A stretch of DNA of 64,000 nucleotides from assembly GCF_054482525.1 (NCBI RefSeq), contig NZ_CM137006.1; one strand, written 5' to 3'. The position numbers and the translations under genes are program-made. Positions 2,193-63,854 of this stretch are shown one piece after another. A model generated the notes under the pieces. It ran no database searches, had not been told where the DNA came from, and saw only the letters and a program-made list of their open reading frames with translations. Numbering within the stretch: the first letter of the stretch is position 1; each line of letters opens with the position of its first letter.

Positions 2193-3047
2193 ATGACTGA
2201 CAAAATGCAAAGTTTAGCTTTAGCCCCTGTTGGCAACCTGGATTCCTACATCCGGGCAGCTAACGCGTGGCCGATGTTGTCGGCTGACGAGGAGCGGGCG
2301 CTGGCTGAAAAGCTGCATTACCATGGCGATCTGGAAGCAGCTAAAACGCTGATCCTGTCTCACCTGCGGTTTGTTGTTCATATTGCTCGTAATTATGCGG
2401 GCTATGGCCTGCCACAGGCGGATTTGATTCAGGAAGGTAACATCGGCCTGATGAAAGCAGTGCGCCGTTTTAACCCGGAAGTGGGTGTGCGCCTGGTCTC
2501 CTTCGCCGTCCACTGGATCAAAGCAGAGATCCACGAATACGTTCTGCGTAACTGGCGTATCGTCAAAGTTGCGACCACCAAAGCGCAGCGCAAACTGTTC
2601 TTCAACCTGCGTAAAACCAAGCAGCGTCTGGGCTGGTTTAACCAGGATGAAGTCGAAATGGTGGCCCGTGAACTGGGCGTAACCAGCAAAGACGTACGTG
2701 AGATGGAGTCGCGTATGGCGGCACAGGACATGACCTTTGACCTGTCTTCCGACGACGATTCCGATAGCCAGCCGATGGCTCCGGTGCTCTATCTGCAGGA
2801 TAAATCATCTAACTTTGCTGACGGCATCGAAGATGATAACTGGGAAGAGCAGGCGGCAAACCGTCTGACCGACGCGATGCAAGGTCTGGACGAGCGTAGC
2901 CAGGATATCATCCGCGCGCGCTGGCTGGATGAAGACAACAAGTCCACGTTGCAGGAACTGGCTGACCGTTACGGTGTTTCCGCTGAGCGTGTGCGCCAGC
3001 TGGAAAAGAACGCGATGAAAAAACTTCGCGCTGCCATTGAAGCGTAA
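2193..3047 (+). CDS. rpoH: RNA polymerase heat-shock sigma factor sigma-32
   Basis: 284-aa [54 protein letters not shown]; canonical length. Confidence 0.97.
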
Positions 3048-3066
3048 TTTCCGCTACTCAGCAGAG

Positions 3067-3100
3067 AACCCTGGATGAGAATCCGGGGTTTTTGTTTTTT
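3067..3100 (+). terminator. rho-independent terminator after rpoH
   Basis: Stem aaccctgg / ccggggtt followed by a T-run (tttttgtttttt). Confidence 0.7.
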
Positions 3101-3318
3101 GGACCTCTGCAATAATCAGTTTCCCCCTCCGGCAAAACGCCAATCCCCACGCAGATTGTTAATAAACTGTCAAAATAGCTATTCCAATATCATAAAAATG
3201 GGGTATGTTTTAGCAGAGTATGCTGCTAAAGCACGGGTAGTCATGCATAAAACGAAATAAAGTGCTGAATCACAACACCACAACACACGTAATAACCAGA
3301 AGAATGGGGATTCTCAGG

Positions 3319-4422
3319 ATGAATATAAAGGGTAAAGCGTTACTGGCAGGATGTATCGCGCTGGCATTCAGCAATATGGCTCTGGCAGAAGATATTAAAG
3401 TCGCGGTCGTGGGCGCGATGTCTGGTCCGGTGGCCCAGTACGGTGACCAGGAGTTCACTGGCGCAGAGCAGGCAGTAGCGGATATCAATGCTAAAGGTGG
3501 TATCAAAGGCAACAAACTGCAAATCGTAAAATATGACGATGCCTGTGACCCGAAACAGGCGGTTGCGGTGGCGAACAAAGTCGTTAACGACGGCATTAAA
3601 TATGTGATTGGTCACCTCTGTTCTTCATCAACGCAGCCAGCGTCAGACATCTATGAAGATGAAGGCATTTTAATGATCACCCCAGCGGCAACCGCGCCGG
3701 AGCTGACCGCCCGTGGCTATCAGCTGATCCTGCGCACTACCGGCCTGGACTCCGACCAGGGGCCGACGGCGGCGAAATATATTCTTGAGAAAGTGAAACC
3801 GCAGCGTATTGCTATCGTCCACGACAAACAGCAGTACGGCGAAGGTCTGGCGCGTGCGGTGCAGGACGGCCTGAAGAAAGGCAATGCTAACGTGGTGTTC
3901 TTTGATGGTATCACCGCTGGGGAAAAAGATTTCTCAACGCTGGTGGCGCGTCTGAAAAAAGAGAATATCGACTTCGTTTACTACGGCGGTTATCACCCGG
4001 AAATGGGGCAGATCCTGCGTCAGGCACGCGCGGCAGGGCTGAAAACTCAGTTTATGGGGCCGGAAGGCGTAGCTAACGTCTCGCTGTCTAACATTGCGGG
4101 CGAATCAGCGGAAGGGCTGCTGGTGACCAAGCCGAAGAACTACGATCAGGTTCCGGCGAACAAACCCATTGTTGATGCGATCAAAGCGAAAAAACAGGAC
4201 CCAAGCGGCGCATTCGTTTGGACCACCTACGCCGCGCTGCAATCTTTGCAGGCGGGCCTGAATCAGTCTGACGATCCGGCAGAAATCGCCAAATACCTGA
4301 AAGCGAACTCCGTGGATACCGTGATGGGACCGCTGACCTGGGATGAGAAAGGCGATCTGAAAGGCTTTGAGTTCGGCGTATTTGACTGGCACGCCAACGG
4401 CACGGCGACCGATGCGAAGTAA
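3319..4422 (+). CDS. livJ: Leu/Ile/Val periplasmic binding protein LivJ
   Basis: Track ORF 3262..4422 trimmed to [23 protein letters not shown] signal peptide (367 aa). Confidence 0.93.
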
Positions 4423-20061: not shown

Positions 20062-20090
20062 GTGCGAATGAGAATGATTATTATTGTCTC
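20062..20090 (+). promoter_or_regulatory. Fur box overlapping the ryhB promoter
   Basis: aatgagaatgattattatt resembles the GATAATGATAATCATTATC consensus, immediately 5-prime of ryhB. Confidence 0.65.
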
Positions 20091-20180
20091 GCGATCAGGA
20101 AGACCCTCGCGGAGAACCTGAAAGCACGACATTGCTCACATTGCTTCCAGTATTACTTAGCCAGCCGGGTGCTGGCTTTT
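20091..20180 (+). ncRNA. ryhB: iron-responsive small RNA RyhB
   Basis: Sequence matches RyhB as recalled (gcgatcaggaagaccctcgcggagaacctgaaagcacgacattgctcacattgcttccag...); ends in intrinsic terminator ccagccgggtgctggctttttttt. Confidence 0.92.
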
Positions 20181-20301
20181 TTTTGATCTTTCGTTTTCAA
20201 TTTATCCACGGGAAGTGCTTGTGTTCGTTATGCGCACTCCAGTAGGAACCACGTCCGCTTTGCGCTAAGGTGTAAATAATCACCTTAAAAAGGACGAAAT
20301 C

Positions 20302-37424: not shown

Positions 37425-37522
37425 TGCCGGATGCGACGTGAACGTCTTATTGGCCTACAAAATCATGCAAATTCAATACATTGCATAAGCCACGTAGGCC
37501 TGATAAGCGTAGCGCATCAGGC
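37425..37522. repeat. BIME: two inverted REP/PU copies
   Basis: gccggatgcgacgtgaacgtcttattggcctac ... gtaggcctgataagcgtagcgcatcaggc. Confidence 0.8.
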
Positions 37523-45313: not shown

Positions 45314-48025
<2,712 letters not shown>

Positions 48026-58528: not shown

Positions 58529-60849
58529 TAATGGCAATCACCGGTGGTGCTGGCTGCGCAGCAACTGCTTACCGATTTGCGCGTTGCCAGCAGTTCGATA
58601 TTCACCCGGCTACGCGCGCGGCGCAGCAGACCGATAACCACGATGTTAAACAGGATAACCGCCAGAATGCACACCAGGCTGTAAGTTGGATGCTGGCTGT
58701 AGCTGGCGACTTGATAGAACAATGTTGCCAGCGAGTAAGCGATATTCAGCCCCCACAGGATGGAGAAGCCCATCCAGCCACGGCTTGATTCACGGGCGAT
58801 AGCCCCCATCACCGAGATGCACGGTACGTACAGCAGGACGAAAATCAGGTAGCTGTATGCGGCAGCTGCGCTACCGAATTTCTGATCCATCACACCCATC
58901 GCCCCGGTACCCATTTCGCCGTCGCCTTTGCTCGCTTCAATGGGGTTCATCAGTACGCTAAGGCTGAAGGTGTCTTTCAGGCTCTGCCAGGTTTCATCTA
59001 CCGCACTGAACAGCTCTTCACCGAGGTTAAATTCCGCCGGATTGAACTCTTCGTCCTGAATATTTTCTGCGGTGTAGAGGGTGTTGAGCGTACCCACTAC
59101 CACTTCTTTCGCCATGGCACCTGTAAACAGGCCAACCGTTGCCTGCCAGTTATCTTCATGCACGCCAATTGGCTTGAAGACCGGGGTGATCACCCGGCTG
59201 ACGGACGCCAGCGCCGAGTCGTTGATGTTATCGACGATTCTCCCGCTCAGCGAGAAGCTGTTGAAAGCGCTCAGGAAAATGCTGACGATGATAATCACTT
59301 TACCAGCACGCAGAACGAAGCCTTTCAGACGCTGCCAGGTCTGGATAATCAGGCTTTTAACGTGTGGTACATGATAGACCGGCAACTCCATGACAAACGG
59401 CGTCGCTTCACCGCGCATGATGGTGTACTTGAGCATCAGGCCAGTCAGCACCGCCATCACGATACCCAGCATATACAGCGAGAAGACCGCCAGCGCACCG
59501 TTCTGCCCGAAGAAAGCAGCCGCAAATACTGCGAAGATAGCCAGACGCGCGCCGCAGGACATAAACGGTGCCATCATGATGGTCATCAGACGTTCACGCG
59601 GTGCATCAAGCGTACGTGCGCCCATTACCGACGGTACGTTACAACCGAAACCAACGATCAGCGGTACAAAGGATTTCCCCGGCAAGCCCAGCGCCTGCAT
59701 CAGACGGTCCATCACAAACGCCGCACGCGCCATATATCCGGAGTCCTCAAGGAAGGAGAGGAACAGGTACATCATGCCGATCTGCGGCACCAGTGGCAGC
59801 ACGGTGTTAATACCGCCGCCCAGGCCCTGGGCGAGGAAGATAGTCAGCCAGTCCGGGAAGTGGAGCGTGTAGCCAATCCACTGAATACCATGCACAAATA
59901 GCGCCACGGAGCCGACGTCAAACAGCGGCTGTAACGCCCCGCCGATGTTGATAGCCAGCAGGAACATCAGGTACATCACAAAGAGGAAAATCGGCAGACC
60001 GAGGAAACGGTTGAGCACGATTTTATCTACCGCAGTGGTGAAACGGCTGGGTTCTGCCGTCAGGGTGTTGCTTACCACATCACAGATGGCAGCAATGCAC
60101 TGGTAACGCGCATCGGCAATGTGCAGCGCCGGATCGTCCATCTCATTACGCAGACGGGCGAGGGCGGCATCAAGATGCTGCGACGCTTCACCGGCGTAGG
60201 CGCGGCTGTAGATATCGCCTTCCAGCATTTGCAGGCCCAGCCAGCGACGTTGTTTCAGCGGGATGTCGGAAGGCATCACTTTTGCCAGTGAATCTGCTTC
60301 GTTGAGCAGCGGCTGTGCGTAATGCACCAGTTCCACATTCTCGTTAGCTTTATAGCGATCAATCGCCAGCTTGAGCGCTTCAATACCGCGACCACGGGTT
60401 GAAACCAGCGGGATCACCGGGCAGCCAAGACGTGCCGACAGAGCATCAATTTCAATGCGAATATTTTGCTTCTCGGCAATGTCGAGCATGTTCAGCGCCA
60501 CGATGCAGGGAATGCCGAGCTCCAGCAGTTGTAGCGTCAGGTACAGGTTACGCTCAAGGTTAGACGCATCCACCACGTTAATCAGCAGGTCAGCGTCGCC
60601 ACTCAAAATGTAGTGACAGGCGATTTGCTCATCGAGCGAGGTCTGCGATGAGATGGTGGTCAGAGAATAGGTGCCGGGCAGGTCCACCAGCGTGACTTGA
60701 TGATCGGTGGTGGAGAATTGCCCTTCTTTACGTTCGACGGTAACGCCAGCCCAGTTACCTACACGCTGACGTGCGCCAGTGAGCTGGTTAAATAAGGTTG
60801 TCTTGCCAGAATTTGGATTACCAATTAAGCCAATGGTTAATTTTTTCAT
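58528..60849 (-). CDS. feoB: ferrous iron transporter FeoB (GTPase plus permease)
   Basis: Track ORF trimmed to [25 protein letters not shown] (773 aa). Confidence 0.95.
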
Positions 60850-60865
60850 TGTTGTTATCACCGTA

Positions 60866-61093
60866 TTAACAGGAAACCGCTTCCACTTCTAATAAGGCCA
60901 GATCTTTTTTGCGTAATACCAGGCTCACACGACGGGTTTCGATATGAATGGGGTCGCCGAGTGGAGCGACGCGCACCACATTAAAAGAGGAGCCAGGTAA
61001 CATGCCTAGAGAAAGCAGTTTTTGGCGATATGCCGGGCTGATTTCACGGGAAAAGCCAGTGATTTTCCACGCAGTATCTGGAGTGTATTGCAT
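60866..61093 (-). CDS. feoA: ferrous iron transport protein FeoA
   Basis: 75-aa [40 protein letters not shown]. Confidence 0.93.
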
Positions 61094-61179
61094 AGGTGCC
61101 TACTTGTTTCTCATTAACTGGATAACTACCTCATGGGGCGTTTGACAGCGACATGAGACCAGATGATTTGCCAACGAAG

Positions 61180-61300
61180 GAGAGATTAAATAATCAACAA
61201 CACAATGATAATGAGAATGGTTTCTATCAGCAATACTTAAAATGTGTGCGAATGTTGGTTTGAATAATAATCTGACTCAATGTTGATGTGGCTCAAGGTT
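61180..61300 (-). promoter_or_regulatory. feoABC control region with Fur-box-like and FNR-like motifs
   Basis: AT-rich region with aatgataatgagaatgg and TTGATgtggCTCAA upstream of feoA. Confidence 0.4.
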
Positions 61301-61423
61301 ATATCGCAGCGAAAATATAATTCGAATAGCGAATTACCAGGACTGGTTAATGTTTTATTAAGGTTTCAGTTGTTAATGAAGTGATAAATATTAACGGGAT
61401 ATATTGAGAGTTTGGTTGTGGAA

Positions 61424-61449
61424 TAAAAAGGCCGGAGATATTCTCCGGC
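61424..61449 (-). terminator. rho-independent terminator after tex
   Basis: gccggagatattctccggc hairpin followed on the minus strand by a T-run. Confidence 0.65.
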
Positions 61450-61477
61450 ACTTTTATGTCAGGCAAGGCGTTCGTTG

Positions 61478-61507
61478 CCAGATGCGGCGTGAACGCCTTA
61501 TCTGGCA
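61478..61507. repeat. REP/PU element downstream of tex
   Basis: gccagatgcggcgtgaacgccttatctggc. Confidence 0.7.
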
Positions 61508-61532
61508 GGTTTACGTTTGTCTATCAGGGCGT

Positions 61533-63854
61533 TTAACGTTTTTTGCCCATTGCCGCCGCCAGCGCATCCATCATCGCGCTGTTACCGGCAGGCTGCGCTT
61601 CACGCCCACGCGGTTTGGCTGCCGGGCGGTTGTTTTGCGGACGTTCATTCCCGCCGCCGCGACGAGCGTTGGTTTCGCCAGGCTGCTCGTCCAGACGCAT
61701 AGTCAGGGCGATACGTTTACGCTGAAGATCCACTTCCAGCACTTTCACCTTCACAATGTCGCCCGCTTTCACCACGGTATGCGGATCTTCCACAAACTTA
61801 TTCGACAATGAAGAGATGTGAACCAGGCCGTCCTGATGCACGCCAATATCGACAAACGCGCCAAAGTTGGTGACGTTGGTCACCGCGCCTTCGAGGATCA
61901 TACCCGGTTGCAGGTCGTTCATTGTCTCGACGCCATCAGCAAACTGAGCGGTTTTAAATTCCGGACGCGGATCGCGACCCGGTTTTTCCAGCTCTTTGAT
62001 GATGTCAGTTACTGTCGGCACACCGAATTTCTCATCAGTAAAGTCAGACGCTTTCAGGTTACGCAGCTCGCTGCTGTTACCCATCAGATCTTTCAGTGCC
62101 TGCTGTGTTGCTGCCAGAATGCGTTCCACCACCGGATAGGCTTCCGGGTGAACGGTAGAGGCGTCCAGCGGGTTATCGCCGTGGTTAATACGCAGGAAGC
62201 CCGCACACTGCTCGAAGGCTTTCGGCCCCAGACGGCTCACTTTCAGCAGTTGCTGACGGTTCTGGAACTGACCGTTCTCATCGCGCCAGGCCACGATGTT
62301 TTGCGCCATCATGCGCGTCAGGCCCGCCACGCGGGTTAACAGCGGAACAGAAGCGGTGTTGAGATCGACGCCAACAGCGTTTACGCAGTCTTCTACTACT
62401 GCATCCAGTTTGCGGGCCAGCTGCGTCTGGCTGACGTCATGCTGATACTGACCTACGCCGATAGATTTCGGATCGATTTTCACCAGCTCCGCCAGCGGAT
62501 CCTGCAAACGACGGGCGATAGATACCGCGCCACGCAGCGAAACGTCGAGATCCGGGAACTCCTGCGCTGCCAGCTCGGAAGCCGAGTAAACCGACGCGCC
62601 AGCTTCGCTGACGATCACTTTCTGCGCGGTCACTTTCGGGAACTGCTTCTGCACGTCGAGATAGAAACGCTCAGTTTCGCGGGAAGCTGTACCGTTACCG
62701 ATCGCCACCAGTTCAACATTATGCTTTTCACACAGGGCAGCAACGGTCATCGCTGCTTTTGCGGCTTGTCCGGTGTGCGGGTAAATGGTATCGGTCGCCA
62801 CCAGTTTGCCAGTGGCATCGACCACCGCTACTTTTACCCCGGTACGCAGGCCCGGATCGAGGCCCATCGTTGCACGCAGTCCGGCTGGGGCCGCCATCAG
62901 CAGATCGTGCAGGTTACGGGCAAAGACGTTGATTGCTTCATCTTCCGCGCGTTCGCGCACGGTGCCCATCAGTTCGGTTTCCAGATGCATCAGCACCTTG
63001 ATGCGCCACGTCCAGCTCACCACGCCTTTGCGCCAGCTATCCGCCGGGGCATTGTTCAGGCGCAGGCCGAGATGATCCATAATGATTTGCTCGCAATAGC
63101 TCTCTTTTGGCGGCTCATCGAACTGCGGATCGGCATTCAGCGAAAGCTGGAGTACGCCTTCGTTACGCCCACGGAACATCGCCAGCGCGCGGTGAGAAGG
63201 CACCGTTGACAGCGGTTCGTGATGATCGAAATAGTCGCGGAATTTCGCCCCTTCCTCTTCTTTACCACTCACCACCGTAGAAACTAAATGCGCATTCTTC
63301 CACAGATAATCACGTACTTTTGCCAGCAGCGCGGCATCTTCGGCAAACCGTTCCATCAGGATATAGCGCGCGCCGTCCAGCGCGGCTTTGGTATCTGCCA
63401 CGCCTTTATCGGCATCAACATATTGTGCAGCCGCGACTTCTGGCGTGTGTGACGGATCGCTCCACAGCAGGTCAGCCAACGGCTCAAGCCCTGCTTCAAT
63501 GGCGATTTGCCCGCGGGTGCGGCGTTTAGGTTTGTAGGGCAGGTAGAGGTCTTCGAGTTCGGTTTTGCTTAAGGTGGCGTTGATGGCATTCGCCAGATCA
63601 TCAGTGAGTTTGCCTTGCTCGGAAATGGATTTGAGGATCGCCTGACGTCTCTCTTCCAGCTCGCGCAGATAGCTCAGACGCGTTTCCAGATTACGCAGCT
63701 GCGTGTCATCCAGACCGCCGGTAATTTCCTTACGATAACGTGCGATAAACGGCACGGTATTCCCTTCGTCAAGCAGGCGAACGGCAGCGTCAACCTGTTC
63801 CGGGCGCGCCTGAATTTCACCCGCAATAATGCGGCAGAACGAATCATTCATCAT
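61533..63854 (-). CDS. tex: transcription accessory protein Tex (YhgF; S1 domain)
   Basis: 773-aa [46 protein letters not shown]. Confidence 0.94.

Follow-up and report, generated by a model that had tools for sequence, protein, structure and literature searches.

Fur, FNR, ArcA and OmpR/RstA sites in the feoABC control region of an Escherichia coli strain

The feoABC promoter of Escherichia coli K-12 is the closest described system, and its literature comprises Kammler, Schoen and Hantke 1993 (considered here as relayed by the papers that cite it), Chen 2007, Myers 2013, Park 2013, Beauchene 2015, Gerken 2020 and Gao 2023. With lacZ fusions, Fur was found to repress feo, and ArcA/FNR to activate it. 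FNR-dependent activation of feo in E. coli was reported by Kammler 1993, according to citing papers, and such activation in both E. coli and Shigella is cited in several papers. Expression of feoA was 7.4-fold up anaerobically (Myers 2013, Table S12). Repression of feo by Fur has been described chiefly for anaerobic conditions, since the promoter depends on anaerobic activators; in strain CFT073, a Fur ChIP-seq peak at feo was accompanied by about 10-fold derepression.

We analyzed a stretch of 64,000 nucleotides (64 kb) from contig NZ_CM137006.1 of RefSeq assembly GCF_054482525.1, hereafter the window, which carries this control region. An initial annotation, made from the letters of the sequence, had placed an AT-rich feoABC control region with a Fur-box-like motif and a TTGAT-N4-CTCAA FNR-like site at 61180-61300, had taken these as consistent with ferrous iron uptake regulated by iron and anaerobiosis, and had suggested Fur and FNR position weight matrix scans as the check. 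The control region is already known: every element has been described before, and the region is that of K-12 in another E. coli strain.

Gene neighborhood and core promoter

A BLAST search with the 801-bp stretch around the feoA upstream region returned E. coli PCN033 at 100% identity, and a match was present in 5425 of the 5426 complete E. coli genomes. The E. coli records identical at 100% carry RefSeq annotation of feoA, feoB and yhgF. Together with the list of open reading frames and the K-12 annotation, this placed the following genes and gene end, and the genes downstream of the control region were thus feoA, feoB and feoC, as initially annotated.

60866-61093, minus strand: feoA coding sequence, 75 amino acids (open reading frame list, RefSeq annotation of the identical E. 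coli records, K-12 annotation)
60849-58528, minus strand: feoB, downstream of feoA (open reading frame list and annotation)
58537-58292, minus strand: feoC, downstream of feoB (open reading frame list and annotation)
63854-61533, minus strand: yhgF/tex, the upstream neighbor of feoA (open reading frame list)
Same gene neighborhood as feoABC, minus strand: rpnA/yhgA (open reading frame list and K-12 annotation)
61431-61449, minus strand: intrinsic terminator hairpin of yhgF (tex), followed by a T run (terminator scan; the yhgF reading frame ends at 61533)

The intergenic region upstream of feoA spans 61094-61532 (439 bp, 40% G+C), and the feo control region is bounded on its upstream side by the yhgF terminator. 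The 121-bp interval 61180-61300 has 32% G+C, in line with its description as AT-rich. Between about 61325 and the feoA ATG, the promoter-proximal ~230 bp, K-12 MG1655 differs from the window by one mismatch; beyond about 61325 there are a few substitutions, and the REP-containing sequence 3′ of yhgF has indels. Because the proximal part is free of indels, K-12 coordinates (U00096.2) convert exactly to window positions as 3599278 minus the coordinate, which we verified on two published sites of known sequence. At 61500-61530, the yhgF 3′ flank with its REP-like element shows indels of 3 bp and 14 bp relative to K-12.

For comparison among species, we fetched 80 FeoA-encoding loci from other Enterobacteriaceae, of which 36, from about 20 genera, were aligned. 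In these 36 species, the only long invariant intergenic stretch was TTG...AACCATTCTCATTATCAT, which contains the -35 element, the Fur operator and the -10 element. The core promoter was assigned as follows.

61205-61210, minus strand: putative -10 hexamer TATCAT (sequence, conservation, position inside the Fur ChIP-exo peak)
61228-61233, minus strand: -35 hexamer TTGCTG, a weak match at 3/6, located 17 bp upstream of the -10 (sequence, conserved TTG)
61099-61105, minus strand: putative Shine-Dalgarno sequence AAGTAGG, 5 nt upstream of the feoA ATG (sequence, at least 90% conserved in the 36 species)

The -10 reads TATCAT in 32 of the 36 species and TACCAT or TATTAT in the remaining four, and the TTG of the -35 is at least 90% conserved or invariant. 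From the position of the -10, and from the ArcA site that Park et al. (2013) placed at -191 to -171 relative to the start, which implies a start at 61199 in the window, we infer that feoA transcription begins at about 61198. A scan of 61050-61560 for a strict sigma-70 consensus found no promoter, because the -35 matches the consensus at only three of six bases. The failed scan and the weak -35 fit an activator-dependent promoter rather than an absent one. Shimada (2014) gave an alternative hexamer pair for feoA, TTATCA-15-TTTAAT, which would shift the start by about 20 bp downstream. We set this pair aside: TTTAAT lacks the A at position 2 and varies by genus (TTTACT, TTTAAC, TTTATT, TTTTTT). 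TTGCTG-17-TATCAT was preferred because it is conserved, whereas the alternative -10 is not.

A side observation concerns E. coli PEC301 (NZ_CM168013.1), in which the transposase gene of ISApl1, an IS30-family element, lies at 2571-3779 between yhgF and feoA; this was seen in 1 of the 5426 genomes. The BLAST match of PEC301 to the control region stops at query base 70, from which we estimate an insertion point near window position 61231, about at the -35 hexamer. An insertion there would leave the core promoter cut off from the FNR site, the ArcA site and the distal Fur site.

Regulator sites upstream of feoA

Fur sites were scored with a 19-bp palindromic matrix built from 16 footprinted or gel-shifted K-12 sites at the coordinates of Chen et al. 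(2007). These training sites were aligned with MAFFT on their GATAAT-N-ATTATC core, and their own scores ranged from 12.9 to 28.4 bits. As a positive control, the strongest Fur match of the window was AATGAGAATGATTATTATT (26.1 bits, 20067-20085), which lies directly upstream of the RyhB gene. The FNR matrix, also palindromic, was derived from 62 ChIP-bound sites in Table S6 of Myers (2013), with the feoA site left out. For the control locus and the feoA upstream region, the scans and the published site data gave the features below.

20120-20184, plus strand: RyhB sRNA gene, the positive-control locus (Rfam RF00057, 83 bits)
61204-61228, unstranded: proximal Fur operator, a pair of 19-bp sites that overlap at an offset of 6 bp (own matrix, Chen 2007, ChIP-exo, conservation)
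61263-61281, unstranded: distal Fur-like site, center 61272, near -74 (own matrix at 12.81 bits, rank 4 in the window; Chen 2007)
61283-61296, unstranded: FNR site, TTGAGCCACATCAA in feoA orientation and TTGATGTGGCTCAA on the plus strand, center about -91.5 (own matrix, Table S6 and ChIP-seq peak of Myers 2013, conservation)
61370-61390, plus strand: ArcA direct-repeat site TTGTTAATGAAGTGATAAATA (supplement of Park 2013: ArcA ChIP peak and matrix site)
61387-61371, minus strand: OmpR-bound box TTATCActtcaTTAACA, overlapping the ArcA site (EMSA fragment of Gerken 2020)
61243-61258, minus strand: candidate OmpR/RstA-type box CCAACAttcgCACACA, -165 to -150 relative to the ATG (proposal of Gerken et al. 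2020)

The two proximal Fur sites, at 61204-61222 (14.69 bits, second in the window) and 61210-61228 (11.90 bits, sixth), reach from the -10 of the putative promoter through its spacer to the edge of its -35; a third, weak register at 61225 scored 4.9 bits. Overlapping Fur sites spaced by 6 bp are the architecture of footprinted operators (Chen 2007). The distal Fur-like site abuts the FNR site, ending 1 bp before it begins. Our Fur sites coincide with all three predictions of Chen et al. (2007), which map to centers 61213 (13.4 bits), 61219 (10.9 bits) and 61272 (10.5 bits); the same paper cites Kammler 1993 for two Fur boxes in the feo region. In shuffled versions of the intergenic region, the best Fur score was reached at P = 0.024, at least three Fur sites of at least 11.8 bits at P = 0.0004, and two such sites exactly 6 bp apart at P = 0.0022. 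By comparison, the classical 19-bp Fur box is matched here at 13/19 at best; since 17 positions in the window do as well, the consensus count alone is unconvincing.

Occupancy in vivo agrees with the proximal sites. In K-12, Gao et al. (2023) mapped a Fur ChIP-exo peak at feoA to 3538047-3538080, present in iron-replete cells only. This peak converts to window positions 61198-61231, covering the proximal pair and the core promoter, and K-12 is identical in sequence across it. Their table lists one feoA peak and no separate peak over the distal site at 61263-61281. The Fur architecture is one of three sites in two clusters, the proximal cluster alone being well supported; the distal Fur-like site has at most a putative role. 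Two further Fur-matrix matches were observed elsewhere in the window, AATGGTTAATTTTTTCATT (12.2 bits, 60832-60850), which lies across the feoA-feoB junction and the start of feoB, and ATTAACAATGATTCGCTTT (13.2 bits, 222-240), near the window start. Both could be chance matches, because shuffled windows give about 1.8 matches of at least 11.9 bits.

On the plus strand, 61283-61296 reads TTGAT-GTGG-CTCAA and retains nine of the ten half-site bases of TTGAT-N4-ATCAA; the FNR-like site of the initial annotation was exact to the base. It is also the feoA site of Myers et al. (2013), who list TTGAGCCACATCAA beneath an FNR ChIP-seq peak, scored by PatSer at 14.6 (ln p -13.13). With our matrix it reached 15.83 bits, on a par with the training median (15.7), and was the second-best match of the window. 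This score was reached in 0.5% of dinucleotide-shuffled 439-bp intergenic regions (P = 0.005) and in 0.67% of shuffled 121-bp intervals; matches at this score averaged 0.23 per shuffled 64 kb window, and two were observed. The predicted Fur-box-like motif was borne out as well, with Fur sites inside 61180-61300 on the Chen 2007 positions and ChIP-exo signal over the proximal pair, and both matrix scans ranked the sites high and above chance (FNR rank 2; Fur ranks 2, 4 and 6). The initial reading of the region as one for iron- and anaerobiosis-regulated uptake agrees with published ChIP data, the anaerobic rise in expression and repression by Fur.

Two matches outside the feo locus are recorded as observations in their own right. 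The top FNR-matrix match of the window, TTGAGTTGAATCAA (16.47 bits, 45666-45679), lies inside the malT coding sequence, a 901-amino-acid reading frame at 45314-48019 on the minus strand that matches the NCBIfam MalT equivalog. An Rfam match to the sRNA ES036 (CssrF) was found at 37459-37501 on the plus strand, with 46.8 bits, above the gathering score of 37.6.

The ArcA site and the OmpR box that overlaps it (61370-61390) lie outside 61180-61300. Park (2013) gives TTGTTAATGAAATGATAAATA as the feoA ArcA site and reports expression 3.7-fold lower in an arcA mutant. One base of this ArcA/OmpR box differs from K-12, at 61381, where the window has G and K-12 has A (plus strand); G is the allele of most other genera, and the box halves TTATCA and TTAACA are at least 90% conserved in the 36 species. 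Gerken (2020) proposed two OmpR/RstA-type boxes, and in EMSA OmpR bound a fragment carrying the upstream one. At the position of the downstream candidate box, Salmonella and Citrobacter read TACATTCCGTCACA, which fits the RstA motif quoted in that study.

Conservation, a model of control and its alternatives

Among the 36 aligned species, the proximal Fur cluster was found at -15, -21 and -27 in all 36. With +1 placed 7 nt downstream of the -10, FNR matched best at a center of -91.5 or -90.5 in 34 of the 36. These 34 species also keep the half-sites TTG..-N4-.TCAA, with scores mostly of 14-16 bits and of about 10-11 bits in five species, and spacers that vary (CCAC, CCAT, AAGG, GAAT and TCAT among them); within the 36, the site was absent in both Cedecea species. 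The distal Fur site reached at least 8 bits only in the window and in one other Escherichia genome, and a single base change abolishes it in E. albertii and E. whittamii.

The region is the E. coli feoABC promoter, very probably with Fur, FNR, ArcA and OmpR/RstA inputs arranged as follows. The weak sigma-70 promoter TTGCTG-17-TATCAT, with its start near 61198, would depend on activators. When iron is plentiful, Fur-Fe2+ dimers occupy 61204-61228 and would thereby keep RNA polymerase off. Without oxygen, an FNR dimer sits on TTGAGCCACATCAA at 61283-61296, about 91.5 bp upstream of the start, and most likely acts in class I mode through contact with the alpha C-terminal domain of RNA polymerase. 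Phosphorylated ArcA (61370-61390) and OmpR/RstA-type regulators would add activation, and the net effect would be ferrous iron uptake switched on when oxygen is low and iron scarce. The sites, their statistical excess, their conservation and the in vivo occupancy by Fur, FNR and ArcA that this model draws on were demonstrated here or in cited work on site-identical sequence. We consider class I rather than class II activation likely because the FNR site lies ~91 bp upstream of the start at a spacing fixed across genera. Class I positions of FNR in semi-synthetic promoters are about -61.5, -71.5, -82.5 and -92.5. Most natural FNR-activated promoters are class II, with FNR at -41.5, and -91.5 is far for FNR.

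This prevalence of class II promoters would favor another arrangement, in which FNR acts class II on a second, upstream promoter and the Fur-covered promoter is a separate, downstream one. It has been proposed for Yersinia pestis, where one study places a P1 spanning the FNR motif and a Fur-repressible P2, and Citrobacter and Salmonella do have a TACATT on the downstream side of the FNR site, at a distance of about 26-31 bp. In E. coli, however, FNR at -41.5 would put the -10 at 61260-61255, which reads AACCAA, and the class II promoter was rejected on this ground; the promoter scan found no promoter-like pair either. The spacing between the FNR site and TATCAT varies by no more than 1 bp in 34 species, an argument for FNR acting on the TATCAT promoter, and the Y. 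pestis authors themselves describe the promoter regions of the two species as not significantly similar. We therefore regard a second, FNR-dependent promoter as highly improbable. A more basic doubt, that the Fur- and FNR-like motifs arose by chance in AT-rich sequence between genes and regulate nothing, can appeal to the 32% G+C of the interval, to the frequency of Fur-like words in AT-rich DNA and to the commonplace 13/19 match to the classical Fur consensus. It is scarcely credible in view of the shuffled controls (P = 0.005 for FNR, 0.024 for the best Fur score, 0.0004 for three Fur sites), the ranks of 2, 2, 4 and 6 in 64 kb, the conservation over about 20 genera and the ChIP data that put FNR and Fur on the site-identical K-12 sequence. 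As an explanation of the FNR site and of the proximal Fur pair, chance is refuted; it could still account for the distal Fur-like site.

The proposed FNR input has also to be weighed against the view that anaerobic induction of feoABC comes mainly from ArcA and a greater availability of Fe2+, with bound FNR adding little. In Table S9 of Myers (2013), feoA is indeed an FNR peak without FNR-dependent expression change, in iron-replete glucose medium, and the 3.7-fold loss in the arcA mutant points the same way. Against this, Myers et al. ascribe the missing FNR effect to masking by Fur in that iron-replete medium, FNR-dependent activation is cited for E. coli and Shigella, and the FNR half-sites, like their position, have been kept in about 20 genera; we judge a minor role for FNR to be unlikely. 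As for the distal Fur-like site at 61263-61281, it might be a working second operator that blocks FNR binding or polymerase contact (anti-activation). Its 12.8 bits and rank 4, the Chen 2007 prediction at the same position, the two Fur boxes of Kammler 1993 as relayed by Chen 2007 and its end 1 bp before the FNR site speak for such a role. Its restriction, at 8 bits or more, to the window and one other Escherichia genome, its loss by one base change in E. albertii and E. whittamii, and the single K-12 ChIP-exo peak at feoA, over the proximal cluster only, speak against it, and we hold a second operator to be conceivable but doubtful. The preferred model, with Fur at the proximal operator and FNR acting from -91.5 on the TATCAT promoter, would join low oxygen and low iron at one promoter, and a gut bacterium would then take up Fe2+ only where it is present and needed.

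The feoA leader and comparison with known systems

Downstream of the start, the transcript would carry a leader with a predicted hairpin.

61094-61198, minus strand: feoA 5′ untranslated leader, ~105 nt (from the predicted start)
61130-61157, minus strand: leader stem-loop CUCAUG-N16-CAUGAG (folding)

The leader segment between the conserved flanks CGUUGGC and CAGUUAGCG differs by genus, yet in most genera refolds to a hairpin, with stems ACCGC/GCGGU in Kluyvera, GCGCCG/CGGCGC in Klebsiella and CAUGCGC/GCGCAUG in Phytobacter. The folding-energy z-score averaged -1.59 and was negative in 19 of 20 species; the E. coli leader as a whole was no more stable than its shuffles (z = 0.17). RNAalifold applied to a MAFFT alignment of the 20 leaders yielded no consensus structure, the recurrent hairpin being found by per-species folding alone, and Rfam gave no RNA family in the feoA upstream region. 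The group of Enterobacter, Leclercia, Lelliottia, Huaxiibacter and Silvania is without the hairpin segment; in Enterobacter, Leclercia and Lelliottia, the leader is 34-35 nt long. A literature search on the feoA leader element returned nothing relevant, and the effect of CsrA on feoABC has been described as indirect. Separately, the leader of Klebsiella indica contains an insertion of ~130 bp, giving 234 nt versus ~100 nt in other Klebsiella and a folding energy of -72 kcal/mol; the insertion may be a small palindromic mobile element.

It is a tentative proposal, and one to which we assign a low probability as a whole, that feoA is at once a natural example of fixed class I activation by FNR and the carrier of an undescribed control element in its leader stem-loop. 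If true, feoA would offer a natural, evolutionarily fixed case of long-range (class I) FNR activation over about 20 genera, with the Fur operator and OmpR/RstA boxes sitting between the FNR activator and the polymerase, and the stem-loop could govern ferrous iron uptake after transcription or through the stability of the mRNA. For work on feo regulation, the constant FNR position at -91.5 and the hairpin of the leader offer small leads. The feo sites can serve as positive controls, and current understanding is unchanged.

Compared with the E. coli K-12 feoABC promoter, the region is the same locus, with no change of sequence or position at the FNR site, the three Fur sites or the second OmpR/RstA-type box; the window strain differs by a G for A at 61381 and by the indels in the yhgF flank. 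With the fepA-fes, entC, fhuF and ryhB operators it shares Fur sites 6 bp apart, here over a putative core promoter, and occupancy in iron-replete cells only. Unlike that type, its proximal Fur scores are moderate, at 14.7 and 11.9 bits (training sites 12.9-28.4 bits, ryhB 26 bits), and feo repression is mainly anaerobic. The location of FNR at -91.5 or -90.5 with fixed spacing would be compatible with far-upstream class I activation of the FNR/CRP type and with helix-face dependence. Among the relatives, the RstA-activated feoABC of Salmonella shares the block of Fur box and promoter, has its FNR site likewise at -91.5 and carries a TACA-N6-CACA box in keeping with the RstA motif, and Citrobacter shares this architecture together with the TACA-N6-CACA box. 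The feoABC genes of Shigella are ArcA- and FNR-activated. In contrast, feoABC of Y. pestis, according to the Y. pestis study, has two proposed promoters, is not responsive to FNR or ArcA and bears no significant similarity to the E. coli promoter.
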